Counted from the stretch's first letter, positions 17,513 to 53,321 are shown. The stretch is 64,000 bases of DNA from an uncultured Hormoscilla sp. (GCA_963921275.4 OZ001293.3:4032001-4096000); one strand, 5' to 3'. Made by a program: numbers and translations. The notes: generated by a model from the letters alone, not told the origin.

Positions 17513-17513
17513 C

Positions 17514-18743: not shown

Positions 18744-18872
18744 GATAGTTATGATAGTGATTTAGTATTATTCCCTACCTACCATATTTCTTCTGCCTAT
18801 TATGACATCAAATTTTGCTTTTGGGCATAAATCTTGATTTTCACCCTATAATAACACATACAGGACTTACAG

Positions 18873-19010
18873 GGCACTGGTGAGCGCCTGATTAAAAAAT
18901 CAGATCAATCCCTTGCTAGTCAAAGGTTTGACCGCTTTATTAACTAATAGCCTCAAATCATAATGGTGTAGGGCATTCAAGCTTTCATTTAACTAGACTG
19001 AACCAGTGCC
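18873..19010. mobile_element. 138-bp MITE (GGCACTG termini; IS6/IS1595-like)
   Basis: TIRs GGCACTGGT/ACCAGTGCC and 8-bp TSD ACTTACAG. Confidence 0.85.
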
Positions 19011-19051
19011 ACTTACAGCCAGAAGGCAAAGATTATTCCAGGCTCAAGGCA

Positions 19052-19671: not shown

Positions 19672-19753
19672 GGTTGAGAACTACTATAGCATATTAAAGA
19701 CTCGTGGGCACAAGTAGAGCTAATGTGATGAAATATAGTAAAGAGGGGATGAT

Positions 19754-34128: not shown

Positions 34129-35935
34129 GTGTGATTCGTTTGGTGGTCCCCCACGGTGGGGGACCACCAGCAGGGTTCCATTAGCCCTGACAACTTATAG
34201 ATGATGTGGGTGCAAGCCCCACCCTCCAGGTGCAGGAGTGACAGCACCTTCCCGGCGGTAGCGATGGCATCAATCCGTAAAGCGGGAAGGAAAGGCGCAC
34301 GGCTGGCGCCGCGCAGCGCGATCTGGCTGGCAGCCTAAAACCGGTCATCGTCAAGCAAGTAGCCATGGTGAACGCAAGTGAAGGCTCACAAGTGTCGTTA
34401 GACATAACCAGTGAAATAAGGCTGATACACTGGCCCCAAAAGGGGAAGGATATAGGTCGCTGGCCAATGGGCAATGGACGCACCGACAACAAACCCGGCA
34501 TAAAGAGTCCACCTAAAGCTACAACCAATCGTCTATAGGAACGAAGTAACCCGGATATGTACTCTCTACCAAGGTCGATAGGTAGAGTAGCCACCAAAGG
34601 CGCAACATCTGCTTCCATCAGGCAGGTCATAACCGCAAACTCCAGAGATTACTAACGAAGTCCTGGTCAGCAAAATGCCTGGCCGTGCGACGGGTAACAC
34701 AGGATAATAAGGGCAAAAACACCGCCAGCGTTGATGGGGTCAAAACTATTAGCCCTAAAGAGCGCCTAGAGATGGTAAAGGAACTGCGGGTGTCTAACAC
34801 CAGCAAGCCAGCCCGAAGAGTATGGATACCGAAGCCTGGGAGGGCCGAAAAACGTCCACTTGGTATACCCGTTATGTACGATAGGGCCCTACAAGGTCTA
34901 GTCAAGCTAGCACTGGAGTCAGAATGGGAAGCCCATTTTGAGGCTAACTCATATGGATTCATGCCAGACAGGGGATGTCACGATACGATCGGAGCAATCT
35001 TTCTCAGCATCAGACAAAAACCCAAATGGGTACTAGATGCTGACATAGCCAAATGCTTTGACAAAATTGACCATCAAGCGCTACTAGCAAAATTAAATAC
35101 CTCACCTACCTTCCGTAGACAGATACGCGCATGGTTGAAAGCCGGTGTGGTAGATGTAGGACAAATACAACAGACACCCGAAGGAACCCCTCAAGGTGGA
35201 GTCATATCGCCCCTGTTGGCAAACGTGGCCCTACATGGAATTGAGGAGGCAGTAATGTCACTGGCAGGAAACAACAGAGACAGAAGGAGAGAACTGACAG
35301 TAGTCAGATACGCCTCCGACCTTGTAGTCCTGCACAAAGACAAAGGAATGATAGAAAAAGCGCAAGAGGTCATCGCGCGATGGCTAAGGGGAATAGGACT
35401 TGAATTAAAAACGGAGAAAACTCAACCCATACACTCCACGAGGACAACCCGGGATTCGATTTCCTGGGATTCAACGTAAGGCAGTATGAGATAGGCAAAT
35501 ATCACTCTGGAAAATATGCAAATGGGAAACTCCTAGGATTCAAAACTCTGATAAAGCCAAGCGAAAAAGCCATAGCAGAACACATGGAAAAGCTAAAAGG
35601 GATAGTGTCCAAACACAAGGCGGCCCCGCAAGCCGCATTAATCAATCACCTTAACCCGGTAATACGGGGATGGGCGAATTACTACCGGACGGTGGTAAGC
35701 AAGGAAACCTTCTCTTATTTAGACCACTACTTGTGGGAACTGCTATGGAAATGGGCCAAACGAAGACATCCCAACAAAACAGGAAAATGGATAGCCAAGA
35801 AATACTGGTCAAAAAATCAGGATGAACAATGGCGATTCCGAAGCAAAGAGGGTGAAAAGGAAAACGTGCTACTAAAACACAGCTCTGTGGAAATAGTCAG
35901 GCACATAAAGGTGAAGGAAACAGTAAGCCCCTACG
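34129..35935 (+). mobile_element. 3'-truncated group II intron with defective RT/maturase
   Basis: 5' GTGTGATTCGTT; RT motifs RPLGIP, DIAKCFD, GTPQGG, YASD (for YADD), FDFLGF after a frameshift at ~35430, GWANYY; DV/DVI absent. Confidence 0.88.
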
Positions 35936-36272
35936 CCCTTTGGGTTTGTTCCAGGGATTGCTTGAGCGTGCTCTGACTGAGTAGAGGAAAGATCTGATGA
36001 GTATATCCATGCAGACCAATCCAATGACTCCGCTGATATACCTGTCTAGCAATAGCAGGCGCTTGCTCCACACAGACGCCTAACCAAAAGAAACTGGCCT
36101 GAATGTCGTAGCTTTCTAGCACTTGTAGCAGTTCCGGGGTGTAATGTCGATGGGGACCATCATCAAAAGTTAGGGTGATCGCCGGTGTATTGCTAGGGCC
36201 AGACCAGAGCCACCTGTTAAAGGCTGGCTGAAGAAGACGATACAAAACGGGATATATTGGTTCGATCGGCAT
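35931..36272 (-). pseudogene. Polysaccharide deacetylase (NodB-like), 3'-truncated
   Basis: LTFDDGP, ASFFWLG, IGLHGYTH; ends at the junction with the intron ORF. Confidence 0.85.
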
Positions 36273-36276
36273 CGCT

Positions 36277-36684
36277 CTAACTGTGACAAACTGCAGCATG
36301 CAAACAGCTCTGTCTGGCCCAAGCCGACTGCACCAGAGAGCATAACACATCACCCTCGATCGGCTTGACCAAATACCCATCTACGCCGGGATTCTCCTCT
36401 TGGTGCAACCAACTTGGTGCGTGAAAGTCGCTCAGAGCTACAATCGTGGTGCCGCAAATTCTGGCCATCTGCCGCAGCTGCTTGACTAAATTGGGCGACC
36501 AGTCTTGCAGATCGCCTGAGAGGATTACTAGATATGGCAGGGTTTGACTTGCTTGCGCTACTGCTTGATCTGCGCAAGAAGCCACCGCTACTGAACATCT
36601 TAATCTACTCAGTAAGGACTCTAGGGCTTGAATATCTTCCGATTGCTTACCTAAAACCAAAATGTAATCATTTAACATGTTCAT
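36277..36684 (-). CDS. Receiver-like (pseudo-receiver) domain protein
   Basis: IVALSD, DGYLVKP; phospho-Asp apparently replaced (VILSG). Confidence 0.7.
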   Translation of the reverse strand: MNMLNDYILVLGKQSEDIQALESLLSRLRCSVAVASCADQAVAQASQTLPYLVILSGDLQDWSPNLVKQLRQMARICGTTIVALSDFHAPSWLHQEENPGVDGYLVKPIEGDVLCSLVQSAWARQSCLHAAVCHS

Positions 36685-37028
36685 ACTCCACCTGGCACAC
36701 GCTACGCTATTGGTTAGTCTAGGAAACTGCAAAAAAGCTGAATTTTGGCTCCATCACGCAGCACAAAATTCTCTTATCCTTATCCTTTCATACAGAGAAG
36801 CTTTTCGGAAATAATTTCCATTTTTCTTAGGATTTCAGCCAGCAACGCCAATTATCTGTACTGACAGTACCAGTAGCTTTGAGGGTGGGTATTCCCTCAG
36901 ACATTAGTGAGAGTATGTAATCGGAGTATTTATTGAGTTTTATATATTATTTCTCAATATTTCTTAAAGAAATGCTAACAAGCTGTAAAATATTGTGAGA
37001 GTTTTACTTCTGTTAGTTTGATACTGCC

Positions 37029-37990: not shown

Positions 37991-39175
37991 ATGACCAGGA
38001 TTGAGACCAAGACCGAACCAATGGTCATCAACATGGGGCCGCACCATCCCTCAATGCATGGGGTACTGCGGTTAATCGTCACTCTCGACGGCGAGGACGT
38101 GATTGATTGCGAACCCGTGTTGGGCTACTTGCATAGGGGGATGGAAAAAATTGCCGAAAACCGTACCAATATCATGTTCGTCCCCTACGTTAGCCGCTGG
38201 GACTACGCGGCGGGGATGTTCAATGAGGCAATTACTGTCAACGCCCCGGAACAACTGGCAGATATTGAGGTGCCCAAACGCGCTAGCTATATCCGCGTCA
38301 TCATGCTGGAGTTGAACCGGATCGCTAATCACTTGCTGTGGTTGGGGCCATTTTTGGCAGATGTAGGTGCCCAGACTCCCTTCTTCTATATCTTTCGGGA
38401 ACGGGAGATGATTTACGATCTGTGGGAAGCGGCTAGTGGGATGCGGTTGATTAATAACAACTATTTCCGTATCGGTGGCGTGGCGGTGGATTTACCCTAT
38501 GGTTGGGTAGATAAATGCGAGGATTTCTGCGATTACTTTTACCCCAAGGTGGACGAGTATGAGAGGTTGATTACCAATAACCCGATCTTCCGGCGTCGGG
38601 TCGAGGGTATTGGCACAATTTCTCGCGAAGATGCGATTAACTGGGGTCTCTCCGGTCCTATCCTGCGGGCGTCCGGCGTTAAGTGGGACTTGCGGAAGGT
38701 TGACCATTATGAATGCTATGACGACTTTGACTGGGATGTACATTGGGAAACTGCTGGTGATTGTATGGCCCGCTATCTGGTGCGGATTCGGGAAATGCGG
38801 GAATCAGTTAAGATTCTTCGTCAGGCCCTGAAAGGTCTTCCCGGCGGTCCGTTTGAGAACCTGGAAGCTAAACGGATGGCAGAAGGTCGAAAGTCTGAGT
38901 GGAATGGCTTTGATTACCAGTGCATGGGAAAGAAAATATCCCCCACTTTCAAGATTCCCAAGGGAGAACATTATGTTCGTCTGGAAAGTGGCAAGGGAGA
39001 ACTGGGTGTCTTCATTATGGGAGATGATAATATGTTCCCTTGGCGCTTTAAGATTCGTGCGGCTGATTTTAATAATTTGCAGGTTTTTCCCCATATACTG
39101 CGGGGGATGAAGGTTGCTGATATTGTCGCTATTTTGGGCAGTATCGATATTATTATGGGTTCGGTCGATCGGTAG
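37991..39175 (+). CDS. ndhH: NDH-1 subunit H
   Basis: [24 protein letters not shown], terminal GSVDR. Confidence 0.98.
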
Positions 39176-39561
39176 GTTGATTCGCTGTCTTCTGGGTAGT
39201 GCGAGTACGATGTCGAGTGGGAGCGCTCAGCCGCGTCGCACTACCCACTCGACATAGAGCGACCAGGAGATAGCGAAGCCAGTAGCCCAGAAACCTGGTT
39301 TTTTCAAAAAAACTGGGTTTCTTAATTTAAGTTTAATTTCACTCTTAAGCAATTCAAAATTCTCTCATTCAAAATTCTTGCATGTTGACATATATCAAGA
39401 GCTGGCACCTGTTGCTAATTTTATCATTGTCAGTGAACTAAATTCCGAGACTGACTCAATCGAGTCGAGCGGTTTTAAGTTTTACAACGCAAACTTGATC
39501 GAAGAACTTCAAGCCAACTTTGAAGAACTATAACTCATAAAATTTGGCGATAATTTGTCTC

Positions 39562-39756
39562 TATAGTAAGTCGTGCAGGAGTTATGTAACTGAGGTGGGG
39601 TTTAAATTATTATCAGGCGGTGAGATTGCTTCGGGATATCTTTATGGGGATCATTAAAATGTTGGTTGGGATCGCTCCTCGTAATGACAAATTATAGTTA
39701 TTGAAATATTAGTACCCACTCCCATAAATTTGCACAAATGATTTAGGCTTGCTATA
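39562..39756. mobile_element. Degenerate TATAG-terminated MITE
   Basis: TATAGTAAGTC... / ...TTTAGGCTTGCTATA termini. Confidence 0.5.
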
Positions 39757-39922
39757 TACCGAGTAAAAGCATGAGGATTGCATCAAAATAATGTCTGACT
39801 CGCAAAAATCCCAGAAACCAGGTTTTTTGTCAAAACCTGGTTTCTTAATTTACAGCATTTTTCATGAGAGTACAGAATTGAATATAGATATGGGAAAAAC
39901 TCGGTAGATAGCATATGTCTTC

Positions 39923-40669
39923 TTAATACTCTCCCATCTCTTTTCCTTCCAAAAATGCTCGTTTGGCGTACTTGCGCATATTCGACTCGGTTATTTTTGC
40001 AAAACAGACCAGTTCGTGGCCTTTGTAATATTCGGGATTGCGTTCTAAAAAATACTTGATATCTGGTTTCTCGCGAAAATTGTCTTTGATTTCAGCCCAT
40101 TGCTCTCGCAAATGTCCTCGGGAAGTGGGGAATTTAACCAGGCCGTTGTTGGGGCTATAATGTTCTCCAAATTTCTCCCCTGCCAGATAATCCATCAAGG
40201 CTTGGTCTTCAGACGGCATAGGATAGCGCCAAGTGGGATAAAATTTTTCTCCAAACACCGGCAAATAGCGATAAGTGCGGTATCCCTTGACAATTAAAAA
40301 CCAATAAAGGGGCACGTCCGGTTTTTGGGCTTTTACTCGACCAGCCAAGCGACACCAGGCCATCGGTAGGGTTTGTTCTCCCCAATAATCATTATGGATA
40401 ATCGTATCTCCAGAAAATAGGGCTCGTCTCGGCTGTCCGTTAAATTCAAATTCCAGAAGAGCCAAGGTAGAAAAGCCTTTCAATCGATGTTGGTCATCCC
40501 ATAATAAAATGACAAAATCTTTGTTTTTTAGGTCGCCAGAAAATATCTCCCAGCTCGTCCCATCGTAATACTGGAAATATAAATAATACATTGAGCGGCT
40601 TATGGGACCTGGTACTACTGGCTCTTTGGGATCTTTTTTTAAAGCAGTTTCAGCGGTTAAGCGACTCAT
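39923..40669 (-). CDS. Hypothetical GNAT-like protein (last gene of the cluster)
   Basis: LKGFST, FSGDTIIHNDYWG, YWFLIVKGYRTYRYL, FLERNP, GHELVC; downstream of the GH3 gene. Confidence 0.7.
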   Translation of the reverse strand: MSRLTAETALKKDPKEPVVPGPISRSMYYLYFQYYDGTSWEIFSGDLKNKDFVILLWDDQHRLKGFSTLALLEFEFNGQPRRALFSGDTIIHNDYWGEQTLPMAWCRLAGRVKAQKPDVPLYWFLIVKGYRTYRYLPVFGEKFYPTWRYPMPSEDQALMDYLAGEKFGEHYSPNNGLVKFPTSRGHLREQWAEIKDNFREKPDIKYFLERNPEYYKGHELVCFAKITESNMRKYAKRAFLEGKEMGEY

Positions 40670-40732
40670 TAGACAACCTCCAAGTAACTGTGGCGTATAA
40701 CTGTTAGATCGCATCCGGATAATCTTAATATG

Positions 40733-41150
40733 GTAGGTTGGGTTGAGCTAAGCGCGAAACCCAACATGTGCATCTCATTTTTGCTTCGCTGTCTCCTGGG
40801 TAGTGCGACGCGGCTGAGCGCAAGGCGTGGATACATCGAGCGACCAGGAGACAGCGAAGGCCATCGGAACCAGTAACCCAGAAACCAGGTTTCGCAGGAG
40901 TTCCCTGGTTTCTTAATTCAGTTTTTTAATTCCAAAGTGAGATGCTCCCCCAACAGCCCCAACAGGCGTTGGTGCTGTTGGGTTTCGTGCCTGATGCTGT
41001 TGGCGAAATCAGTTTAATTCTCTGAAACCCCTTTTCTACGGTAGACAGCATCAACGATAAATTTGGCTTTCTCCCAATTCGCCAACAGCATCCGTGCCTC
41101 AACCCAACCTACAGCTGCGTTCATTTTATTATGGGCATTCAACTGGATTT
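40733..41150. repeat. Nest of REP elements and MITEs
   Basis: GTAGGTTGGGTTGAG-type REP, ISKra4-like ends (TGCATCTCA / TGAGATGCTCCC), nested-palindrome repeat and GAAACC REP. Confidence 0.7.
40993..41092. mobile_element. 100-bp MITE inserted in a REP
   Basis: Perfect 15-bp TIR GATGCTGTTGGCGAA and 7-bp TSD CGTGCCT; the empty REP is seen at ~55720-55748. Confidence 0.9.
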
Positions 41151-41236
41151 CTAGGGGCAAAACCAGAAGCGATCGCCCTCCCACTGACAAGTTTCACGAT
41201 TTATTTAAGACTGCTATTATTCTCAAAATCTAACGC

Positions 41237-42751
41237 TCAAAATTCCGCAAGCAGTTCCGGCGCTATGGGCGTCGTGGCTAAGACATCGTTTTTGATATCG
41301 CCCCACTTGCTTCCAGACCTTGTCTTATATAGTGTAACAATTTCGAGAATTTTTGGCGAGACCAGCACTCGGGCCGTCCCAAGCTGACCGAGAAGCCGCG
41401 CCTGACGGTAGTGGGGCGATCGCATGAGGGCAGCGTCTAGGCGCGACCCAATTTCCTCTGCTGGATCCTCAGCCTTGTCCAGCAAGAGGATGTAATGCTC
41501 GGTAGGTATAATTGCGGGTGCTAGGCTCTTAAAAAAAGTTTTTTCCAATCCTAGATTATCTAAAACTTCCTGCACAAAGTCCTCAGACAGCTTTTCGCCT
41601 ACCAAATCGCTAGTTTTGCCACCGCGCCCGAGGAATTCTAGGCAGGGTGTTTGGCCATAGAAATGGCTGACGCAGACGCGATCGCCCATTCGGTAGCGGT
41701 ATAGACCCCCTTTTTGGGAAATAATTAGCGAGTAAACCCCACCCTTCTCTATTTCCTCCAGGGGATAAATCTTTCCTTCGGAGTCTTCAAATTCAAAAAA
41801 GACTTCATCGAGTAAGGGCACAAATCCAGAAGCCTCGATTAAAGGAAGGGTCATCGGCGCCTCGGTTGCCAGCAGTCCTTTCCCCTGAACCATCGTGCCC
41901 GGGAAGAGCGATCGCCAAAATTGCGCTTTGTTCGCCGCGCGGGCGCTATCCCAGCAAGAAATTAGCTTCAGTTCCGGCCAGAGCTGACTCCAGGGAATCT
42001 CTTCTTCCAAAAGCAGGCGGGAGCGATCGCCGGATATTCCCTTTCCCAGTTTCTCCCGCAAGCGCATCCGATGGGTCTGAATATAATCTAGATGAACCTT
42101 GAGGAAACTGGGACTCCAGATGGAGATTATCTCCAGCTTATCTTCGATGAGCAGAGCGGTACAAAGTTTTTCCTTAAACTCCTCCGGGTCTTGAAGGCGA
42201 TTTAATCCGGGGGGCGAAACTACAAAGGGTGAGACAAGCGATCGCAACCACCCGTCTAAATACTCCGAATCGTCTGCCAATCCTCTTGGGGCCTCCCCCT
42301 TACCGAGCTGGGGAGAGATACAGAAATATACTTTACCCGTGCGGAACTGCGGGCTATGCAAAATTAGGTCCCGTGCCCAGACGCAGAACAAATGGTTAAA
42401 AGAGCGTCTGAGAGATTTTGTATAAGGAATCAACTTTGCTGGCCCGCGACTGCCAGAGGTTTTCTCATAAAATAAAATCGGTTCCGGCGTTAGCAGGCTT
42501 TTTCTGGAATAAGGGCGATCGGCCTCTGGAATAATCCACCCTTCGATATCATCGTAATTCACAATGGGAATGCGATGCCAATCAGCAACAGATTCGATCC
42601 CGAGGTGTTTGCCATATTCGCTCTCGATCAGACGGTTGAGGATTTCGGCTCTAACTATAGCCTGCGCTTCTTGGGGATTGGCCAGCGCCTTGCGAAACTT
42701 TTGAGCGTGAGGCTCAAACAGCCAGGTGAAGAGTTGAAATATCGGGCGCAT
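41237..42751 (-). CDS. GH3-family acyl-adenylate-forming (amido) ligase
   Basis: EKTSGSRGPAKLIPYT, GLLATEA, FFEF, GGLYRYRMGD, EFLGR, LVGEKL. Confidence 0.9.
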   Translation of the reverse strand: MRPIFQLFTWLFEPHAQKFRKALANPQEAQAIVRAEILNRLIESEYGKHLGIESVADWHRIPIVNYDDIEGWIIPEADRPYSRKSLLTPEPILFYEKTSGSRGPAKLIPYTKSLRRSFNHLFCVWARDLILHSPQFRTGKVYFCISPQLGKGEAPRGLADDSEYLDGWLRSLVSPFVVSPPGLNRLQDPEEFKEKLCTALLIEDKLEIISIWSPSFLKVHLDYIQTHRMRLREKLGKGISGDRSRLLLEEEIPWSQLWPELKLISCWDSARAANKAQFWRSLFPGTMVQGKGLLATEAPMTLPLIEASGFVPLLDEVFFEFEDSEGKIYPLEEIEKGGVYSLIISQKGGLYRYRMGDRVCVSHFYGQTPCLEFLGRGGKTSDLVGEKLSEDFVQEVLDNLGLEKTFFKSLAPAIIPTEHYILLLDKAEDPAEEIGSRLDAALMRSPHYRQARLLGQLGTARVLVSPKILEIVTLYKTRSGSKWGDIKNDVLATTPIAPELLAEF

Positions 42752-42784
42752 GGTTGGGTAAAAGGGGATTTTAGGGACAAATTG

Positions 42785-43405
42785 TCAGTCAACATTTTCC
42801 GACATTTTTTTATTGGGAAGCAAATCCGTGGTGACCGGAACGAAGGCGCCATCTTCTATTACGACTCCCGGACCCATGCGCGAAGCAGAACCTAGGAAAA
42901 CATTGTTGCCAATTTTGACTTTTTTCACATAGAGCATCAGGTCTCCTTTCTTGGGTTTGATGACGTGGGAATACATCCCGACCTGGTGCCCGATAATAGC
43001 CCGATCGCCTATTTCAATTAAACCGCGATCGGCGATCGCCAGTCCTAGATTCCAATACACGTTCTGTCCCACCTGGGCCCCCCAAAGTCTCAGCCACGCC
43101 GAGAAAGCGCCGGGAATCAAGCGCAGCAGGGTTTCCAGAGCCGGAAAGGCAATATACACCGCCTGAATCTGGTGACTGCCCCACCAAGGAGAATATTTTT
43201 CTCCCAGCAGATAGCTAATGCCTTCTTCTATGGGATAGAAATATCTGTGGATCCGATAGATCAGGAGCGGCAGTCCATAAAGAGAAAAAATGAGCGCCCC
43301 GACGCTAGCAAATCCTGGAGCTATACAAATCCAGAGGAACGACGCTGCCGCCATTAGCATCACAAAGGCGGGAAAAAAGGACAATAAGGTGCTTAGAGGA
43401 GTCAT
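42785..43405 (-). CDS. Membrane-bound hexapeptide-repeat (LbH) acyltransferase
   Basis: N-terminal TMs, WLRLWGAQVGQNV, VKIGNNVFLG; the 43423 start lies within an ATTCAAA heptamer repeat. Confidence 0.82.
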   Translation of the reverse strand: MTPLSTLLSFFPAFVMLMAAASFLWICIAPGFASVGALIFSLYGLPLLIYRIHRYFYPIEEGISYLLGEKYSPWWGSHQIQAVYIAFPALETLLRLIPGAFSAWLRLWGAQVGQNVYWNLGLAIADRGLIEIGDRAIIGHQVGMYSHVIKPKKGDLMLYVKKVKIGNNVFLGSASRMGPGVVIEDGAFVPVTTDLLPNKKMSENVD

Positions 43406-43602
43406 AAGCAATTCAAAATTCAAAATTCAAAATTCTTGCATTTGCAAATACTTGGAGAACAACGATCGAGCGCAATACCTCGTTCGGGGGGCGGACTGGT
43501 TGGGGCCAGAAACCGGGTTATTGGTGGGAAATATTGGTTGGGGTGCCTACATTCTGGCAGAAACCCGGTTTCTCGTTCGCTGTCGCTATAAATTGTCCCC
43601 AA

Positions 43603-44328
43603 TTAAAAAGGCCAGACTAATTTTTGCATGAGAGTGAGATTGGTTTCAATTCCGAGAGCTTCTGGGGCGCGATCGCTTGGGTAATAAGTTCCGTGCAGGC
43701 GGTCCCAGAGTTTGAGATTTGCCCCGTAATTCTGGCGATTAATCTCGGTTTTGGCGTGATGCCATGCATGGTCTTGGGGCAAAATCAGCACTAGCGATAG
43801 CAGCCCATGCAGCCAAGGGATTTCCAAGTCAATCTCGCTATGACGCCACAAGTCCAACGCTGAAGTGAGGCTGACTCCCGCAATATACCAAGTCGGGTCT
43901 TGGAGCAGGTAGATAAATAAAGCGTGAATCCACAAATAAATAATTAAAAAGCTCGTCCACAAACTATTGCGGGATGTTCCCAGCACGTCTCTGTCGGTCA
44001 TGGTATGATGTACCTGATGCAAAGGCCAGAGCCAGGGACTGTGCAGCAGGCGATGGTTCCAATAATAAAGATAATCGACTAACACAAAACTAAGCAAGAA
44101 TGCTATGGCCGGATGCCAGTCCCAGCATCCCCGCGCTGCGGGTAGCAGATAGCGATAGATTTGATAAACTACGGTTATCTGCAGGATGGGGATGAGAATG
44201 CCTTGGAAAAATAAACCGATGGCATCCAGAAGCCAGTCGCCACGACTTTTGGCTAGCATGGTTGCTAAACGGCGATCGTTTTTGGCTGTCAGGGCTATGA
44301 GCATTGCAAAGGCGATAAAAACTTCCAT
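43603..44328 (-). CDS. Sterol desaturase/fatty-acid hydroxylase family protein
   Basis: His boxes YWNHRLLH, HQVHH, HAWHH; NYG..WDRLHGT. Confidence 0.92.
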   Translation of the reverse strand: MEVFIAFAMLIALTAKNDRRLATMLAKSRGDWLLDAIGLFFQGILIPILQITVVYQIYRYLLPAARGCWDWHPAIAFLLSFVLVDYLYYWNHRLLHSPWLWPLHQVHHTMTDRDVLGTSRNSLWTSFLIIYLWIHALFIYLLQDPTWYIAGVSLTSALDLWRHSEIDLEIPWLHGLLSLVLILPQDHAWHHAKTEINRQNYGANLKLWDRLHGTYYPSDRAPEALGIETNLTLMQKLVWPF

Positions 44329-44366
44329 AATCCTAAGCGATCGCTCTCCTGTCGCTGCTGCTACGG

Positions 44367-45403
44367 TTAAACCCAGAATGTAATCTCGCGGGAGATTTCC
44401 GGTAGCTTGCGGGGGTCTTTTCCCGCTGCAATGCTATCGCGGATCGATTCTACGAAAACATGGATGGTGTCGGCGGGGGTGTTGGCAAACTTGGTGCCGT
44501 ATTTTTCGATAACCTCCTGCTGAATTCCCATAATTTCTACATCTTGGTTGATAATATACTGAGCCGTCCAACGGATAAAAGGCCGAGCCAGCTTATTCCA
44601 AATTCCGTAGTCGTAGGTGACGTCGGTATAAACTAAGGTCGAATCTTCTGCTTCGGGAATCGATTGGCTAGTAATAAAAAGTCGCCTGTTCTTTCCCAAG
44701 TTGTATTCTACGCTGGTAATGTTGGGCGCGTGAAAGCTATCGGTATGTTTGATTTCGCCACCCCCCGGGTTCAGGAATTTGCTATACCAACCCAGATTAT
44801 TGGTTTCCTTGCGGTACTCGACCAAGACCGAGCCCTTGCGTCGCGATACCGTCATTTCTAGTTTCTGCTGGCGGGGATTTCTAAATACGCCGGGGTGAAC
44901 CGAGGCCGTATGGGGAATATCGATAAAGTTCTCGGCACAGTTGGTGACGTTATTGCGAAAGCGATTAATCACCCGCACGGTTTCCCACCCTGGCTTACCA
45001 TAGTAGGGCATGGCAAAAGGCTCGATTTCTTCGGCGGGCTCCGTACCGGAAAAATCGGATGCTAGCCTCACATAAACATATCCATCCTGCTCTCGGGTAT
45101 CGTATCCCTTGGTTCGCCGCGATGCTAGGGTTTTGAAGTTCTCTCCTTCGGCGGGCACGGCGACAACTTCACCCCTTGGTCGTAGGTCCAGCCGTGGTAG
45201 GGACATTGGATTTTGCCCTTGCTCACTTTTCCCCGAGAGAGACGGCTATTTCTATGCATGCAGCGATCGCGCAGAGCCACTGGTTGGCCATCTTCTCCTC
45301 GAAACACTGCCAGCCATTCCCCCAGCACCGTGCGAGCCAGCACCCTATTGGGTCCCAGTTGCTCGCTCAGGGCGACTATGTACCAGAAATCCTCGAATTT
45401 CAT
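44367..45403 (-). pseudogene. Rieske non-heme iron oxygenase alpha subunit, frameshifted at ~45175
   Basis: DRCMHR...CPYHGW in 45125-45403; ENFIDIPHTASVH in 44367-45206; the junction is a G-run one base short. Confidence 0.85.
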
Positions 45404-45703
45404 CTAATTTGTTGATAATGTTCTTATCTTAATATCCCCGGTTAAATCTAACTGGCAAGCCAGCCTTGCTTGGGTATTTCCCGCCGCCACAATCTCCAGA
45501 ATTTCTTTTTCCTCTTCCCTGGGCGGCGGGATATCCCCTTCCACTAATACCGCGCAAGTGCCGCAGATGCCCGTCCGACATCCAAACAATACTGGCGAGT
45601 TCTGCACCGTCAGATGCTCGGAAAGGTTCTGGTGCTTTTTCAGGGCGAGCCCCTCCCAATCCGTTCCCGGGAAACTGATAATACAGATTTGCTCGTTCAT
45701 CAA
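45404..45703 (-). CDS. 2Fe-2S ferredoxin
   Basis: CRTGICGTC...RLACQ. Confidence 0.92.
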   Translation of the reverse strand: MMNEQICIISFPGTDWEGLALKKHQNLSEHLTVQNSPVLFGCRTGICGTCAVLVEGDIPPPREEEKEILEIVAAGNTQARLACQLDLTGDIKIRTLSTN

Positions 45704-45739
45704 TCTGCAATACTCCAGCTTTTCATGATTTCTATTATT

Positions 45740-46788
45740 CTAACCTTTCGGGAAGGCAATTCTCGACCAAATCGACGGTTCCAGTTGATTGACATAATTC
45801 ATGTACTCTATCAAAGAGCGATCGATGCTCAGCAAGACATGGGGATGATAGCGAATATTATCGTAAATCTGTCCGTCTTCCTCCTTGAGGGTATAGTATG
45901 CTAGCCGGTCAGCAGCAGCAAAAATTTGGCAACTAACCATCCCCAAATTCCGTTTCTTTTCTCCGCTACATAAATCGGTTGGATTATAGTTTTGTCGGGA
46001 GCCACTGGCCTATAGGCATAAATCATGTGCAGCGGCGGCAGCAAGCGCACGTTTTTCATAATAGTCAGCAGTCCCATACAGCCATCTGCATACCGCATGG
46101 AGTAGGCGTAGCTGCTGCCAAGTATCCTGCGTCCAATCCGTTCTTTCCAGGTAGTGCTGGGAAACTCGCCGCTCAGGGTAAAATCGACGATATTGCCCCT
46201 TTGATTTTGCTCCAGGGATAGCTCCATGTCAACATGCACTTTGTGGACGGTTTGCAAATGCTGGGCATCGATGTTATTCATCATGCAGATATGGTGATGG
46301 CAAGAGCGATCGAAGGGCTTGTCGGTTTCTACGACTAGAGGTTTGCCTTTGAGTTCGTCAAATTCGACGACGCCCTCCGGCGCTTGGGAGTCGGGATAGA
46401 CCCAAATAAAATCGTATTTTTCGTCGGTGGCATAGGATTGCAGGCGAGCTTTCTCGGGAATATCCGATTGACAAGGGATATCCTGACAGCGGCCAGCACC
46501 GTCAAATGCCCAATGATGAAAAAAACAGCGAATCAGATTTCCATCCACTCGCCCGATCCCTAAGTCCGTTCCTAGATGGGGACAATAGGCATCAATTGCA
46601 CGAACTTTGTCATCCTCTCCTCGGAATACGGCGATTTTTTGCCCGCAGACTTCTACCGATTTGACTTGGCCTCGGGGTAGTTCTCGACTGGGACAGGCAA
46701 TGTACCAACCTTTGGCTACTATATCCCAGTTGTTGAAGATTTTCATCTTCAACAGGGGTTGAGTATTTTGATTCTGAAGAGCCTTCAT
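45740..46788 (-). pseudogene. Rieske oxygenase alpha subunit, frameshifted at ~45905
   Basis: CPHLG..CFFHHW and NNIDAQHLQTVH; C-terminal EEDGQIY segment lies in another frame (45740-45946). Confidence 0.85.
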
Positions 46789-46856
46789 TTTTGGGGGTTA
46801 GTGCGATTTGGGGTGGGCGCGCAGGTGGGACGCCCGCGCTACGGGGGGTTTCTCAA

Positions 46857-48041
46857 TTATGAATTCCAAATTCTCAATGCTTTTCGTTGGATCGCCAGAT
46901 ATTGGGGAATTGAACTTGCCGCCATTATAGACATTTCTCGGTTGCTCTGCTACGCATAGTCTATCCCTTCCAGATAGGCTTTGTATGATTCTAACGCTTC
47001 TCGGTGCGTTTGGTAGCTGCGATGTAGTCCTTCGGATTCTTGGCCGAAGCAGGCTGTTAACATTTCCTTTGCTTCCCGATCGCTCATCTCAAATACAGGC
47101 GATCGCAGCACTTCATAAACCGCTCCATACAGGGCCGGGTCGTACCAAAAAATTCCATTGATCACCGCTGAAAAGTGATAGTGGTCTCGCTGACACCCGC
47201 GCAGTCCCATATTTGCCGCCCACTTCTCGAACTCCGTCGGCGGCTTCAGACATTTCATCACGTCATGGGAAATAATCGTAGAACTATTAAAGTGAAAGCT
47301 CTCATCCATAAAATGATAAAAAGAAATCTGCGAGGGTATGGGTGCCTTCTCCCGATCGGGATGCTTCTGGTAGTAGCTGCTGAGCTTGTGCTGCACTAGC
47401 TTGCCATTTAGGGTCCGCACCCCCCGAACTGTAAAATACTGACAAGCTAGGAAGCTATTGCCCGCCGAAAGCAACCCGAACGCTTGCAGTTGCAGCTTCT
47501 TCCACCAAGTTTTAATCCCGTTGGTGTCCGCATAAATCATCGTCTGGGCAAAGGGCCCGCGCATGGCGTAGGTAAACACCCGTTTTCCAAACAATGCTGC
47601 TTCTACTTGGCTGGATATCTTCTTAAAAGCGCTAATATGCGCTCGCTCCTGGTTGGATTCCAAATCTAGCATATCGCAGACGAGGCGAAAATCCTCTTGG
47701 GCGTAAAGTCCGGCGGCGCTGGTTTGATTGAAAAAGATCGTGGCAATTTCCGCCGAAATAATCTGTGAGTAGTACGCTACCCAGTACAAGTGGTTCAAAA
47801 TCTGCCGCTGGCTCGGACTGGCTTGCTCCCACAAGGCCGTGCCATACAGCAGGGAAAACTCTTTGGGATTCCAGTATTCCTCCCGGCAGTCTTCATATCT
47901 AAAGGCCGCTGCTGCGGAGTCGATCGCCTCTGTTCGATCCTGCTGCTTATTCCGCTTATAGTTAATCTCCAGCTTCCGGTTTGTCTTCTCGCTCTCAGAG
48001 AGAGTATTGGTTTTGGGCTCTTCTAATAAAGTAACGCTCAT
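46857..48041 (-). CDS. CylC/AurF-like dimetal-carboxylate enzyme (candidate halogenase), premature TAG at 46950-46952
   Basis: YWNPKEFSLLYGT, YWVAYYSQIISAEIAT, QERAH and DESFH ExxH motifs; frame continues 30 aa past the TAG. Confidence 0.75.
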
Positions 48042-48078
48042 AATTTATAACCTTTTTCGATAGATGTTCCCGAGGGAT

Positions 48079-49110
48079 CTACGCCAAAGCCGCGCATTGG
48101 CTTGCGGGGAAAGACTGGAACGCCCCCCGCTCCTCTAATTCCCGGACAATTGTTTTGGGAACTGGCGAGACGTTAGCGCTGCCAAGCATCAGAGAGCGCA
48201 AGGTTGCCAGACGGGCGCTGCTATGAGTTTCTGTATCTAGTTCCTCAAATAGTTTGACTTTCTGGGAACGAGAGAAATGTCCTTTTACTTTCTCCATCGC
48301 AGCTACTACCCTCTGGGGCCCTGCTTGCACCATCCCCAAAAATAGGGTTAAGGTTTCTACGATCGCATCCCGACTTGTTACTGAAACATTGCTCCGGTCA
48401 AATAGGATAACCCCCGTACTGTTGTGACGGGCTTCGTCCTGGAGAAATCCTGTTAATACTTCAGCCACAGAGCGATCGCGACAGCTCCGGGAAATGCTTC
48501 TATAATGGCTCAGCCCCCATCCTTCCAGCACTACCTGAATCACAAACAGCAGCAGAGCTTTATCAGAGCTTTCTCCCAAATCGGATAAAAAGCGCAAAAA
48601 ACCATCGGACGTTGCTACCGGTTCGGAGGGCAAAAACTGCCTAACCTGGGACAGGTGGGTTGCTTCCTCGGCGCTAAATAGTCCGTAGATCATCCGCTCT
48701 TCGGTGCTTTCTGCCAGCAGCAACATTTTCGCCATATAGCCCATGCCGGATTTTTCCACAAAATAGGCTTCTTCTAATAGTCCGCGACTGCATAGATGCA
48801 ATATTTTTTGTTGCTCTTCCGGTCGAGATTCCTGGAATAGCTTGACATTTTTCAAGTCAAAGTATTCAGGATCCCAGTATGTCACACCGCCATCTTCTAC
48901 TTCGGCGTGGCTATTGCAATTCTGGATCTCTGGGGCGATCGTCTCAGAAACCCAACGGCTTTTAAGAGTCGAAGAGAGGACGCGATGTAACTTGTCATTC
49001 TCTCCCAGATTTGGCAAGTCAAATCCCGCTATTGTGTTTTTTATCATCCTCTTTTTTTTAACTATGTCTAATTTATTAGACAACTCTTTGGTTGCAGCCA
49101 ACCCACCCAA
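48079..49110 (-). CDS. Ferritin-like diiron protein
   Basis: EAYFVEK, EEATH, VLEGWG and DEARH ligand pattern. Confidence 0.82.
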   Translation of the reverse strand: MGGLAATKELSNKLDIVKKKRMIKNTIAGFDLPNLGENDKLHRVLSSTLKSRWVSETIAPEIQNCNSHAEVEDGGVTYWDPEYFDLKNVKLFQESRPEEQQKILHLCSRGLLEEAYFVEKSGMGYMAKMLLLAESTEERMIYGLFSAEEATHLSQVRQFLPSEPVATSDGFLRFLSDLGESSDKALLLFVIQVVLEGWGLSHYRSISRSCRDRSVAEVLTGFLQDEARHNSTGVILFDRSNVSVTSRDAIVETLTLFLGMVQAGPQRVVAAMEKVKGHFSRSQKVKLFEELDTETHSSARLATLRSLMLGSANVSPVPKTIVRELEERGAFQSFPASQCAALA

Positions 49111-49135
49111 GGTTGTTCGGTAGCGATATCCTCAA

Positions 49136-50218
49136 TTAAGATTGCTGAGATGCACAGAATATTTCCCGAGATTTCCCCACAACTTCTCGGGTTAATTCTG
49201 AAGCAGTCGCTGCCTCTATTTCCTCCCAGGTAGCCCACGCCAGAGGTTTTTGGCTTTCCACATGCTCTATTAATTCCACCACTGACTTATCTGGCGCGAT
49301 CGGGGTTTGAAAATCAAAATTAATGGTTTGAAATACTTTCGTATCCCCTTTAGCAAAATAGTTGCCCACCAGTTGCGTCACCAGCAGGACGATGCGATTA
49401 AAAATCCATCCCCATATTCCCGGGCGTTTTTTGGTAATTAGAATCGTTTGCCCCTCGGTTTTTCCCCCTTCTATGAGGCGCAGGGCAAACATAATATAGA
49501 AGTGGAGAAAGTCCGGGCCCAGGGTCACCGTGCCTGTGCTTCCATACCAGTAGCACATGCTGTAGGTGCCTTCGTTCCGGTAGAAGGGGCGGATCAGTTT
49601 TATCAACCAGGAGTCGTCTCCTCCCCGAGTCGTGTTGCTAAAGACGATCGCGTTTTCGTTGAGTTTTTCTTTCTTGAATACGATATCTATGGGAAAGTTG
49701 TGGACGGTATTGAAGTGCTGGGCGTCGATGGCGTTAATCATGACTGCGTTCGGGTGGCAATTTTTAACGAATCTAGACCCAAAGGCTGTATCGCATTCTG
49801 AGTTTTCCAGTTCCGGGATGAAGGGCAGGGGCTGCTTCGGACTGTCACCGGTCCATACCCAAACCATGCCGTATTTTTCCGCCGTCGGCCAGGTTTTGAT
49901 TTTCACCGCCAGGGGCTTCCCCAAGGAGGGAACATCAACGCAAGTGCCAGTTGCGTCGAACTTCCAGTTATGGAAAAAACACCGGATGCCATTGCCATCC
50001 ACGGTTCCCTCCGCTAGGTGCGCCCCCATGTGGGGACAGTAGGCGTCCACCGCCATCGCCTTGCTATCCCCTCTGCGCGCGATCGCCAGCTTCCGTCCCT
50101 GTAGAGTAACTGGCTTTATCTGGCCCATCTTCAGTTCCCGAGACGGTATCGCCCAGTACCATCCCTCAATAAATCTTTCTGGATTGTTAAATGTTGTGGC
50201 TTTACGAATCGTTTTCAT
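49136..50218 (-). CDS. Rieske oxygenase alpha subunit (first gene of the cluster)
   Basis: CPHMG..CFFHNW, NAIDAQHFNTVH, GDTKVF. Confidence 0.92.
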   Translation of the reverse strand: MKTIRKATTFNNPERFIEGWYWAIPSRELKMGQIKPVTLQGRKLAIARRGDSKAMAVDAYCPHMGAHLAEGTVDGNGIRCFFHNWKFDATGTCVDVPSLGKPLAVKIKTWPTAEKYGMVWVWTGDSPKQPLPFIPELENSECDTAFGSRFVKNCHPNAVMINAIDAQHFNTVHNFPIDIVFKKEKLNENAIVFSNTTRGGDDSWLIKLIRPFYRNEGTYSMCYWYGSTGTVTLGPDFLHFYIMFALRLIEGGKTEGQTILITKKRPGIWGWIFNRIVLLVTQLVGNYFAKGDTKVFQTINFDFQTPIAPDKSVVELIEHVESQKPLAWATWEEIEAATASELTREVVGKSREIFCASQQS

Positions 50219-50527
50219 ATAATTCCTATACGCTCAAAAGCCTTTTCTCCAAGGCTAACGCAAATCCGATCGCAGCTGGGCGGTCCCGGGCCGCTGCCCC
50301 CAAAAGCCCCTCGCTGCTCTATCGGGACCACTGCGACCGTTTTTCTGCTATTATAGCAAGCCGTGCAGTATGGCAAGACCTTGTATTTTTCCCACCTTGG
50401 AGGTACACTTTAAAGGGATGGACTTGCGCTTTAAGGCATTGTTGGTGTCCGGAGCGAGGAGGGATCTAGCAGCAGTAACGAAGGTTCGCACAACTGTCAG
50501 ACCCCCCGGCCTTCGCAGCGACGACCC

Positions 50528-50761
50528 TAAGCAATTCGCTCCCAAATCTCATTCAAAATTCACAGGGGGAAAATCTTTGAGAACAAGGATCTCCGCGGCT
50601 CAGCCTATGCAATTTAAATGCACGACAGCTTAATGAAATTTTAATGATTGATATGCGCTAAGCAATTCGCTCATTATTTCTTCAAAATTCACAGGGGTAA
50701 AACAATTGAGAACAAGGGTTTCAGCTTTTTGACCGTAGCAATGTAAATGAGCGACAGCTTA
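50528..50761. mobile_element. Two tandem ~104-bp MITE copies (TAAGC...GCTTA termini)
   Basis: Copies at 50528-50632 and 50659-50761; TIRs TAAGCAATTCGCTC / GAGCGACAGCTTA. Confidence 0.75.
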
Positions 50762-51173
50762 TATAATAACTAAAGTTGCCACCTATAAAAATTATACGTC
50801 CGAAACATTGATTTGGGGTATTGTATCCACAGAAATGCCATTAGGGGGTAATATACAAGGATATATGGGATGATATGGATTGATTGTGACCTTGATTTGC
50901 AATCTTGTTGCAACTTAGGTTATAACTGGGATCTTGCACCATTCTCGATTAGTTTCATGGCCCGCCGTGGGTTCAAACCCACGGCTAATAGCTTAAGTGG
51001 GTTAAAACCCACTGGAAGCATTGTCGCTGAAAGGATTTCCTCTCGTTCCCTGGCTCCGCCAGGGAACGAGTTCTAGAGGCAGAGCCTCTAGTTGAAAATG
51101 ATGCAAAATATGAGTTATAATAGAGAAAACAGCGAACGCTGGTGGGCACCGCCCACCCTACGGAGGAAAAGTT

Positions 51174-51947
51174 ATGGCTGATGTGATAGATTACAAAATT
51201 TACGGCGGCGACCTGCAATTAGTTGAGGTCGAACTGGACCCCAGGGAAGGGGTGCAAGCTGAAGTTGGCACGATGACCTATATGGAAGAAGGCATTGAAA
51301 TGCAAACTGGTATGGGTGGCGGCGGTCTCTTCTCTGGCTTCAAACGGATGTTGACAGGTGAGAGTTTCTTTATTACTACTTTTGTTAACGGCGGTCGCGG
51401 TAAGGCGCGGGTGGGTTTCGCTGCTACTTCCCCAGGTCAAATTATCCCTCTGGATCTGGGTGCCTTAGGCGGCGAATTTTTGTGTCAGAAGGATGCTTTT
51501 CTCTGTGCAGCTAGCGGGACTGAGATCAGTGTTGCTTTTACTAAACGCTTGGGGGCTGGCTTCTTTGGCGGTGAGGGTTTTATTCTGCAAAAGTTGCGCG
51601 GGGATGGTATGGCTTTCGTGCAAGCTGGGGGCGCTATTGTTGAGAAAGGTCTCGAACGCAGAGAAGAGTTGCGGGTGGATACTGGCTGTTTGGTGGCTTT
51701 CTCCCCCTCGGTGGACTACAGCATTGATTTTATCGGCGGGTTCAGGAATGCTTTATTTGGTGGCGAGGGTTTGTTCTTGGCCAAGCTGAAGGGGCCGGGT
51801 AAGGTGTTCGTCCAAAGTCTGCCTTTCTCGCGGCTAGCTGAACGCATTGGCGGGACTTACTTTAAACAAATAACTGGGGCGGAACAAGATGCCTCTGGTG
51901 CTGCTGGTTTGATTGGTGGACTGCTGGGAAGAGGCGAGGATGGCTGA
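51174..51947 (+). CDS. TIGR00266/AIM24-family protein
   Basis: TGESFF, CQKDAFLC, FFGGEGFILQ, VDTGCLVAF, QSLPFSRLA. Confidence 0.92.
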   Translation: MADVIDYKIYGGDLQLVEVELDPREGVQAEVGTMTYMEEGIEMQTGMGGGGLFSGFKRMLTGESFFITTFVNGGRGKARVGFAATSPGQIIPLDLGALGGEFLCQKDAFLCAASGTEISVAFTKRLGAGFFGGEGFILQKLRGDGMAFVQAGGAIVEKGLERREELRVDTGCLVAFSPSVDYSIDFIGGFRNALFGGEGLFLAKLKGPGKVFVQSLPFSRLAERIGGTYFKQITGAEQDASGAAGLIGGLLGRGEDG

Positions 51948-52471
51948 GTTGGACATGGGGCTTGGGGCTGGGAGGTCATACAATCGCTTGCATTAGTCTC
52001 GTCTATGCCAGAATAAAGCCAGTGTAAAGGATAGGTGATCGATGACTTGGATATCTGGGCAAAGTTTACAAAACGGAAAGTACGTTATTGACAGCGTTCT
52101 GGGCGAAGGTGGCTTTGCGGTTACCTATCGGGCCAAAGACGGTAAGGGACGCTACGTGGCCATCAAAACCCTGAATGACAGGGTACAGCAAGGGCCTGAT
52201 TTTGAGAAGTTGCAGCAGGATTTCCTGAACGAGGCATTGAAGATTCAGAAATGCTGGCATCCCCATATCCTGGAGGTCTACGAGGTCATCCAAGAGGGTG
52301 GCCTGTGGTGCATGGAATGCATTAACGGGGAAGATTTAGCTAGTCGGGTGAGTCGGGAGCTTTTGTCGGAAGGGGAGGCGCTGCAATATATTCAGCAAAT
52401 CGGCGAGGCCCTGATAGTGGTTCACTCTCAAGGTTTGCTGCACCGGGATGTGAAGCCCGAAAATATTATGC

Positions 52472-52584
52472 GGCGTTGCACATTTTGGGGATGATGCCCT
52501 TTTTTGCACATAACTGAAACTGGCTTGTAGTCTAGGTTTAAGACTTCTGCAACTATGCCCATCATCCCATAATTGTGCAACGCC
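52472..52584. mobile_element. 113-bp IS1595-like MITE
   Basis: TIRs GGCGTTGCACA/TGTGCAACGCC and 8-bp TSD TATTATGC. Confidence 0.92.
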
Positions 52585-52851
52585 TATTATGCTGCGTTCT
52601 GGCAAGTCGGAAGCGGTGTTGATTGATTTTGGCATTGCCCGGGAGTTTACCCATGATGTGGCCCAGACTCAAACTAGCTACCGGACTGATTATTATGCTC
52701 CTATCGAGCAGTATGAGAACCGGGCTAAGCGGGGGGCCTATACGGATATTTATGCCCTGGCGGCGACTCTGTATTTTATGTTGACGGGCCAGTTGCCAGC
52801 TTCTGCTCCCAGTAGGGCTGCGGATACGCCCTTAGTGCCTTCTCGGGCTAT

Positions 52852-53321
52852 CTCTCCCCTCGCGGCTTGCGCTTTACATCTAACTTGTCCAATCTAGACA
52901 GCACACGAGAAGTTACTTCGTTCCCTAGTATCATTTCACGATGCTTTTAGGCCCCTGCTATACCCCGGGAGTTCTTAGAGTGCGATACTGGCCAAGTGCA
53001 AGAACCAGCACAAACTACCATTTCCCTTTTGGGCCAGCGCTTTAAGCCTTATTTCGCTGGTTCTAGATAACGAGGCGTACACAGGTTCGCTTGTTCTAGC
53101 CATTAGCATCTTTCCTAGCGGCGTCACTAGCTTAGGCTGCTAGCTATCCTACATTTAAGTCCTTGCTCCGCACCACCGTGATGTGACTCAGCAGCACTAA
53201 GGACCGGTGTTACTCCCACACTTGGAGAGAGGGAATCTAACCCCCATGAATACCAGAGTTACCAGTTTGGACCTGGCCTAGCGTTCCGTAGTTGCCCACG
53301 TTAGACTAGAACGAATCGCAC
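52852..53321 (-). mobile_element. 5' fragment (domain I region) of a group II intron
   Basis: GUGCGAUUCGUU at 53321; highly similar to 30829-31314. Confidence 0.85.

Follow-up and report, generated by a model that had tools for sequence, protein, structure and literature searches.

What does the ten-gene cluster at positions 39923-50218 of a 64,000-nucleotide stretch of DNA from an uncultured Hormoscilla sp. (GCA_963921275.4 OZ001293.3:4032001-4096000; the whole stretch is called the window here) produce, and can this copy still produce it? The cluster, in which three Rieske oxygenases and a CylC-like diiron protein lie beside a GH3-type amido synthetase, adds a damaged member to a class that is known but still orphan, and its interest lies in that class and in the hypothesis linking GH3 to an aminolipid rather than in this copy. 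The best reading, towards which we lean, is a pathway for an oxidised, possibly chlorinated N-acyl-amino-acid lipid, here present as a decaying copy on a genomic island.

A preliminary description of this DNA had named ten co-oriented genes and their families, and all of these calls were borne out. The ten open reading frames (ORFs) were found at its coordinates on the minus strand. Their families were assigned with Pfam and NCBIfam profiles and, for the GNAT-fold protein, with a predicted structure. The genes fall into eight protein families: GNAT-fold, Rieske (three copies), ferritin-like, CylC-like, ferredoxin, FA_hydroxylase, hexapeptide acyltransferase and GH3. They are mostly closely spaced, as had been said, with 0-68 bp at most junctions, 179 bp ahead of the acyltransferase and 522 bp ahead of the GNAT-like gene. 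The cluster is also rich in HIP1 sites (GCGATCGC), another feature already noticed, with 13 in its 10.3 kb compared to 46 in the whole 64-kb window. From the 5' end of the operon the genes (lengths in amino acids, aa) are:

49136-50218, minus strand: Rieske oxygenase 1, 360 aa, intact (Pfam Rieske 77.7 bits; KshA_C weak)
48079-49110, minus strand: second ferritin-like diiron protein, 343 aa (Pfam Ferritin_2 weak)
46857-48041, minus strand: CylC-like diiron protein, open ORF 46950-48041, 363 aa, stopped by an in-frame TAG at 46950-46952
45740-46788, minus strand: Rieske oxygenase 2, frameshifted near 45907 (ORFs 45901-46788 and 45740-45946; Pfam Rieske 90.5 bits)
45404-45703, minus strand: [2Fe-2S] ferredoxin, 99 aa (Pfam Fer2 35.2 bits)
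44367-45403, minus strand: Rieske oxygenase 3, split near 45175 (ORFs 45125-45403 and 44367-45206; Rieske-type NCBIfam models and VanA_C)
43603-44328, minus strand: membrane di-iron protein of the FA_hydroxylase / sterol-desaturase family, 241 aa (Pfam FA_hydroxylase 92 bits)
42785-43423, minus strand: left-handed beta-helix acyltransferase with a hydrophobic N-terminus, 212 aa (Pfam Hexapep 30.3 bits)
41237-42751, minus strand: divergent GH3 acyl-acid amido synthetase, 504 aa (Pfam GH3 N, M and C domains)
39923-40714, minus strand: GNAT-fold protein of an unnamed family, 263 aa (predicted structure)

Eusebio et al. (2021, BMC Genomics, PMC8406957) sorted 95 clusters with CylC homologues into seven architectures, of which the "Rieske-containing" one was the commonest (36 of 95). 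As described there, it has two to four Rieske proteins, usually a protein of the sterol-desaturase family, one CylC homologue and no carrier protein. The window holds three Rieske proteins, two of them frameshifted, an FA_hydroxylase of the sterol-desaturase family (92 bits against a cut-off of 31), an acyltransferase and a single CylC homologue, which is the one match in the whole genome (G000) and has no carrier protein or fatty acyl-AMP ligase (FAAL) as a neighbour. No PP-binding or AMP-binding match was found by profile scan among the ten genes or their flanks, and no gene for an acyl carrier protein (ACP), FAAL, polyketide synthase or nonribosomal peptide synthetase (NRPS) was found in the cassette by domain scan or among the protein families of 71 related loci. 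The cluster is therefore almost certainly a member of the Rieske-containing class. Unlike the class as the survey describes it, the window copy has three disrupted genes, carries its GNAT-fold gene at the far end and lies on a strain-specific island. In the same survey, the CylC homologues of this class are grouped in one clade with their counterparts from a Synechocystis arrangement named "PriA-containing", and they fall into one sequence-similarity cluster with homologues from outside the cyanobacteria. The PriA-containing arrangement resembles the window in the sub-module GNAT-fold / Rieske 1 / ferritin-like / CylC-like, seen in locus L081; its remaining genes are scattered in the genome, whereas all ten are together in the window. 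The statement in the preliminary description on Rieske-containing clusters that have CylC homologues and no product agrees with the survey. None of the three outcomes that it had named as refuting its reading was seen; for one of them, a match to a characterised cluster, literature searches, including those for a later characterisation of the cluster type, gave only the 2021 survey as relevant. These searches found no publication linking OlsH or GH3 with Rieske-containing CylC clusters, and a term search of the main text of the survey found no mention of GH3.

The placement of the CylC-like protein rests on its active-site residues and on a tree. The Pfam AurF profile (PF11583) scored 19.1 bits, under its cut-off of 29.6, and a PDB search with a profile of 20 orthologues gave no chain at E <= 1. 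The protein has the CylC/NocO-type motifs QExxH and HxxDExxH, and the residues E98, Q131, E132, H135, H243, D246, E247 and H250 are invariant across the 20 orthologues and are common to the FAAL-adjacent CylC paralogues. Eight of the nine residues essential in NocO are kept. The ninth is Q217 at the position of NocO E252, the one position reported as variable (Biochemistry 2025, PMC12101540). A quick IQ-TREE run, on cluster-type rows and FAAL-adjacent paralogues, placed all 65 cluster-type rows, including the window, in one clade (SH-aLRT 100) apart from the five FAAL-adjacent paralogues. Motifs and clade together put the protein within the CylC group, as first proposed. It resembles the CylC and NocO described in PMC12101540 in its ferritin-like fold family, in both motifs and in the first-helix Glu. 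It differs from them in its separate clade, with 34-41% identity to the FAAL-adjacent paralogues, in the Gln at the E252 position, in having no ACP or FAAL neighbour and in its truncation by a stop codon, and its activity is a prediction only. When the two diiron proteins of the cluster were compared as possible paralogues, hhalign gave a probability of 8.9%, and the alignment covered no more than a brief YWxPExF stretch at the N-terminus.

Disruptions are seen in three of the ten genes. The preliminary description had ended the CylC-like gene at 46857, which reads through the in-frame TAG; reading on to the TAA at 46857 adds ~30 residues, and each of the 19 aligned orthologues has a conserved tail that matches them, with W in the TAG column in most of these orthologues. 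The stop thus removes ~30 conserved C-terminal residues. For Rieske 2 and Rieske 3 the family calls stood, and their description as whole genes did not. Rieske 2 is frameshifted near its 3' end and stops 48 residues early, with its tail in another frame (45740-45946); the orthologue in locus L011 is a single continuous frame of ~349 aa. Rieske 3 is cut after ~75 of 340 residues, behind the Rieske domain, and is a single frame in L011 and L012. Both frameshifts are 1-base changes in short homopolymer runs. The remaining seven cassette genes align end to end with their orthologues.

The lesions were compared with other assemblies. Contigs of up to 347 kb from runs X4, X5 and X6 of one study were identical to positions 44300-47000 at a word depth of 33-69; these runs are perhaps the source samples of the genome itself, so that they exclude an error of the deposited assembly and do not count as independent strains. 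A coral-metagenome contig (X1) was ~96% identical, with 50 and 38 changed letters over 1420 and 1035 bases, and carried one additional base at precisely each of the two frameshift sites, behind 45175 and behind 45907. Because the X4-X6 contigs agree and X1 has the extra base at each frameshift site, the lesions are very probably real in the DNA and, as judged from these comparisons, recent. That they are sequencing artefacts, or are tolerated in an operon that still functions, is highly improbable. The homopolymer runs, the possible origin of X4-X6 as source data and the confinement of two of the three losses to C-terminal parts would fit such an explanation. Against it, three separately assembled runs agree at every base, one lesion is a substitution-type stop codon rather than an indel, Rieske 3 loses most of its length, and the housekeeping genes of the window (gyrA, the ndh genes and rsmH) are intact. 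With three of ten genes disrupted, the copy is therefore probably not functional, and it is most likely decaying and non-producing.

The cassette is a strain-specific island at a variable spot:

39186-51138, no strand assigned: strain-specific island, ~12 kb, between ndhH and an AIM24-family gene

Similarity to three same-genus genomes ends at ~39185 and resumes at ~51139. Both flanking genes are present in all four same-genus genomes, ndhH at 95-98% and the AIM24-family gene at 92-96% identity, and the CylC-like orthologue was not found in any of the four; two of them hold only CylC paralogues of 34-41% identity beside FAAL-like genes. The interval between the two flanking genes measures 541 bp in G001, 4.2 kb in G002 and 12.7 kb in G004, compared to 12.0 kb here, and in G003 the two genes are on different contigs. 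No remnant of a cluster gene was found in the intervals of G001, G002 and G004. Those of G002 and G004 (L087, G002:C6:215500-223500; L088, G004:C60:3000-19000) are filled with other genes, of mobile type, for an HNH endonuclease, an IS200-like transposase, toxin-antitoxin-like proteins and a DUF433 / nucleotidyltransferase pair, and that of G001 is near empty. The HIP1 sites had been taken to suggest long cyanobacterial residence. They argue for residence in HIP1-bearing cyanobacteria rather than in this lineage; the cassette was not found in the four same-genus genomes and sits at a variable spot.

The GNAT-like gene lies here at the end opposite its usual place, flanked by two copies of a small dispersed repeat (39177-39335 and 40781-40925, ~85-93% identical in pieces). 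The repeat has internal hairpins, its pieces match 45 places in the genome, and it looks like a miniature inverted-repeat transposable element (MITE) or a repetitive extragenic palindromic (REP) element. In G025, which has the closest complete cluster, the GNAT-like gene is on another contig. A possible GNAT-like remnant upstream of Rieske 1 was rejected, as only weak opposite-strand matches were obtained (50117-50275, E 0.046-0.73). The 955 bp upstream of Rieske 1 also contain an 81-nt direct repeat, 77% identical with its copies 129 nt apart (50552-50632 and 50681-50761), and a 48-bp piece at 50721-50768 recurs beside the AIM24-family gene in G002 and G004. An Rfam scan of 39000-51500 gave nothing at E <= 0.1. 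A promoter and terminator scan gave counts near the shuffled expectation, with one standout:

39813-39845, minus strand: terminator-like hairpin with a 14-bp stem, 3' of the GNAT-like gene (consensus match only)

The conserved content of the cassette was read from related loci. A locus scan with one genome per species gave 67 loci, 37 of them with full 10-kb flanks. All ten genes were present in 22 of these 37, including loci in non-cyanobacterial metagenome-assembled genomes (MAGs), which bears out the conserved synteny that the preliminary description had called for. All but Rieske 2 were present in 28 of the 37, and in 22 of those 28 every gene was on one strand. The usual order is GNAT-like, Rieske 1, ferritin-like, CylC-like, Rieske 2, ferredoxin, Rieske 3, hydroxylase, acyltransferase, GH3. 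The ORFs of 71 loci were clustered into families, and eight families recurred: Rieske (65 of 71 loci, 150 proteins), CylC-like (65), ferritin-like (60), GNAT-like (50), FA hydroxylase (48), GH3 (46), acyltransferase (44) and ferredoxin (44). The next commonest family was found in 10 of the 71 loci. Three accessory proteins recur with the cassette in several phyla, none of them in the window. A short-chain dehydrogenase/reductase (SDR) lies between Rieske 1 and the ferritin-like gene at 10 loci (for example, L028:8198-9040 and L063:15604-16446), an Mpo1-like protein of the 2-hydroxy-fatty-acid dioxygenase family is found at nine (L022:680-1102, L029:3530-3913) and an amidohydrolase (Amidohydro_3) at 10 (L022:1116-2825, L063:19096-21057). 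Apparent gene fusions in L072 (acyltransferase and GH3) and L071 (ferredoxin and Rieske) were rejected as artefacts of the ORF starts, with matches in different frames.

Cassette genes, partly rearranged, were found in MAGs labelled Gammaproteobacteria, Legionellales, Rokubacteria, Elusimicrobia, Acidobacteria, Oligoflexus, Halobacteriovoraceae and Caulobacterales, and the CylC-like proteins of these non-cyanobacterial MAGs are 52-62% identical to that of the window. The quick tree also shows a clade of 11 rows (SH-aLRT 96) that arises from within the cyanobacterial rows. Of the 11, ten are labelled non-cyanobacterial, and the other, L051, has a Rickettsiales label and may be a mis-binned cyanobacterium. 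This nesting suggests that the cassette may have been exported from cyanobacteria. In an even sample of the phylum, a CylC-like orthologue (E <= 1e-100) was found in 31 of 401 genomes and 21 of 152 genera, and 10 of the 31 carrier genomes belong to another class of the phylum.

GH3 is kept with the cassette even at a distance. A GH3 match was found in 31 of the 31 carrier genomes compared to 68 of all 401. In G137, G198 and G219 the gene is retained although ~1-3 Mb separate it from the CylC-like gene. Two of these belong to a set of three genomes of one genus (g10: G137, G161 and G198), which we infer to be Synechocystis; GH3 lies away from the CylC-like gene in all three, by 1-2 Mb in G137 and G198. 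With a cut-off of 23.6 bits for each domain, the window GH3 scored 89.8 (N), 58.6 (M) and 23.8 (C), and the plant GH3 structure 4b2g matched it at E 1e-13. Its alignment with plant GH3-1 includes motif I (TSGSRGPAK) and motif III (GLYRYRMGD), and motif II was not located. The canonical, high-scoring GH3 type accounts for most GH3 matches in the 37 sampled genomes without the cassette. A second GH3 gene, of this canonical type, is present in G000 (L090:6918-8603; 561 aa, Pfam 271 bits). The gene next after it encodes a Cupin_8/JmjC-type oxygenase (L090:8667-9635), and the pair spans G000:C1:6320917-6323634.

By profile, all three Rieske proteins join a Rieske domain to a domain of KshA_C/VanA_C type. 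Their translations contain the CxH...CxxH and DxxHxxxxH motifs, and their PDB relatives are alpha-only proteins like KshA, SxtT and NdmA, at E 1e-20 to 4e-24. Rieske 1 and Rieske 2 are nearest to 3-ketosteroid 9-alpha-hydroxylase in the PDB comparison; for Rieske 1 the closest solved structures were KshA 4qdc (E 4e-24) and then SxtT/SxtDIOX. The best NCBIfam match of both was the sterol demethylase SdmA, far under its cut-off. The N-terminal piece of Rieske 3 matches Rieske-type NCBIfam models and its C-terminal piece VanA_C (38.2 bits); its closest solved structure is NdmA (E 2.6e-20), and it is also near the demethylase DdmC. The ferredoxin is present in 33 of the 37 fully flanked loci. In the ferritin-like protein, E119, E149, H152, E196, E226 and H229 are invariant in 28 orthologues and make up a 4-Glu/2-His site. 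Its model (pLDDT 85) gave AurF, PaaA, ADO and R2 as best folds, all weak (E >= 0.027), and Foldseek gave no match at E <= 0.001 that would assign a subfamily. The FA_hydroxylase translation has the His boxes HRLLH, HQVHH and HAWHH, and hydrophobic membrane segments are seen in the translations of this protein and of the acyltransferase. The GNAT-like protein has no Pfam or NCBIfam match, and a PDB profile search of its family was also empty. A model built from 32 relatives (pLDDT 89.4) is predicted to have a GNAT fold (Foldseek E 6e-6; VIA Z 10-12, the best being 12.4 with 153 residues aligned and an rmsd of 3.0 A). The family has one copy per genome in the five genomes searched, and usually lies directly upstream of Rieske 1.

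How might these enzymes work together? A precedent is provided by OlsH, the one characterised bacterial GH3, which uses ATP to join a free fatty acid to ornithine, giving N-acyl ornithine (J Biol Chem 2025, PMC12493201). In that pathway the partner of OlsH is the alpha/beta hydrolase OlsI, and OlsE, which belongs to the FA-hydroxylase superfamily, adds a hydroxyl to the ornithine head group. By analogy, the substrates of the cassette may be free fatty acids or their amides rather than carrier-bound acyl chains. GH3 would adenylate a fatty carboxylate and join it to an amino acid, as OlsH does, and additional N- and O-acylation would fall to the GNAT-fold and hexapeptide enzymes. Hydroxylation, desaturation and perhaps chlorination of unactivated carbons would be the work of the Rieske enzymes, supplied by the ferredoxin, together with the membrane hydroxylase and both diiron enzymes. 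What results would be an N-acyl-amino-acid lipid, heavily oxidised and associated with the membrane. Besides OlsH, this chemistry is favoured by motifs I and III in the window GH3, by the GH3 match in every carrier genome, by OlsE as the best named match of the membrane hydroxylase, by the hydrophobic segments of two enzymes, by the accessory genes that recur across phyla and by the finding of no ACP, FAAL, polyketide synthase or NRPS gene. The acyl-amide or lipid-like product guessed at in the preliminary description is favoured here too, with OlsH as the precedent. We regard acyl-amino-acid lipid chemistry as a tentative assignment. More doubtful is the full proposal of a mobile cross-phylum pathway in which GH3 makes an N-acyl amino acid and the free chain is hydroxylated, desaturated and chlorinated by the Rieske and diiron enzymes. 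The window resembles the OlsH/OlsI system of Singulisphaera acidiphila (PMC12493201) in having a bacterial GH3 in a lipid context, no acyl carrier and a di-iron hydroxylase of the OlsE superfamily nearby. It differs in having neither the OlsI alpha/beta-hydrolase nor the OlsG methyltransferase, in having six extra oxygenases and in the divergence of its GH3.

Several points weigh against the N-acyl-amino-acid lipid pathway or against the decay of this copy. The cassette GH3 is a low-scoring, divergent subfamily, with Pfam E-values of ~1e-19 to 1e-27 compared to 1e-75 to 1e-87 for the common cyanobacterial GH3, and it is likened to OlsH by family and description. The co-occurrence of GH3 with the cassette in the carrier genomes overstates independence, as the carriers are inter-related. 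For the FA_hydroxylase the best NCBIfam match is OlsE, with a score of 66.7 bits where the cut-off is 475, which places it at the superfamily level only, and that of the acyltransferase is the Pls/PosA NRPS terminal domain at 39.9 bits, far under its cut-off of 423. No alpha/beta hydrolase was found among the conserved cassette families of the 71 loci. A 2026 review states, in the part that covers the subject, that no aminolipid has been reported from cyanobacteria, and the text of the 2021 survey gives no known product for any member of the Rieske-containing class. The characterised CylC relatives described in PMC8406957 and PMC12101540 all use ACP-bound substrates. Chlorination by the CylC-like protein is possible, and halogenation in its clade is a prediction only. 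Finally, the truncated CylC-like and Rieske 2 proteins lose C-terminal parts only and could keep some activity.

Other kinds of product were weighed on the same evidence. The cluster might be a conventional natural-product cluster that makes a halogenated, oxidised fatty-acid derivative, with GH3 capping or activating the acid, the CylC-like protein a true chlorinase and no aminolipid-type scaffold. We consider this unlikely, although the retention of eight NocO-essential residues with a documented variant as the ninth, the patchy distribution among the sampled genomes and the view taken in the survey, that the class is a biosynthetic gene cluster working on fatty-acid intermediates, all speak for it. 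Conservation at 55-62% identity between phyla, in the same order, is unusually high for specialised metabolism, no transporter, regulator or carrier protein is conserved with the cassette, and GH3, the GNAT-fold protein and, at some loci, the amidohydrolase point to amide chemistry instead.

A pathway running in the opposite direction, in which an exogenous lipid or N-acyl compound is demethylated, hydroxylated and re-conjugated for catabolism or salvage, is very unlikely. No uptake system is conserved with the cassette, and a ligase and two acyltransferases are building enzymes. The nearness of Rieske 3 to the demethylases NdmA and DdmC, which would suit such a pathway, is a likeness at the superfamily level only (E ~1e-20). 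It would also gain from the amidohydrolase and the Mpo1-like protein, of an alpha-oxidation family, at some loci, and from carriers in predatory or host-associated lineages (Oligoflexus and Legionellales MAGs). We give only a very faint chance to the tailoring of a polycyclic isoprenoid lipid, hopanoid- or sterol-like, on its ring or side chain. The KshA-like and SdmA-like matches of Rieske 1 and Rieske 2 and the membrane enzyme of the sterol-desaturase family agree with it; a squalene-hopene-cyclase domain was found in two of five non-cyanobacterial carriers, one of them weak and with genome completeness not established, and the characterised CylC relatives all act on fatty acyl chains. The N-acyl-amino-acid lipid pathway is thus the reading that we carry forward.

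Further observations were made elsewhere in the window. Just beyond the island, a Ser/Thr kinase domain is split over two plus-strand ORFs (52042-52494 and 52589-52897; Pkinase profile positions 1-130 and 135-201) and is probably another broken gene. A plus-strand ORF for an SLH/OprB-type porin (56097-56900) covers profile positions 2-75 of 372 only and is probably truncated. On the other side of the island, the RVT_1 and GIIM maturase domains of a group II intron lie in separate plus-strand ORFs (34685-35479 and 35584-35976), and a minus-strand ORF of this group spans 35931-36732. Next to the intron domains lie a polysaccharide deacetylase, truncated, and a fragment of a response regulator. 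Signalling genes at 16904-21718 encode an RDD-domain protein, a kinase-RDD fusion and two FHA-domain proteins, and an RDD-pentapeptide protein is encoded at 61447-63567.

The Rieske-containing architecture was the most abundant among CylC homologues in the 2021 survey and is still without a product. A CylC-type enzyme that works without a carrier would be a sought-after catalyst for C-H functionalisation, a point made by the survey itself (PMC8406957). The link to GH3 and the conservation across phyla turn the class into a concrete, testable hypothesis of an N-acyl amino-acid lipid, for which intact orthologous cassettes in cultured strains, for example locus L029 in Tolypothrix tenuis PCC 7101 and L016 in Phormidium sp. 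CCY1219, are the tractable hosts and the broken copy described here is a poor starting point. If the full cross-phylum proposal were true, the cassette would provide the first cyanobacterial aminolipid and the first carrier-independent diiron halogenase, and with them a new class of membrane lipid.

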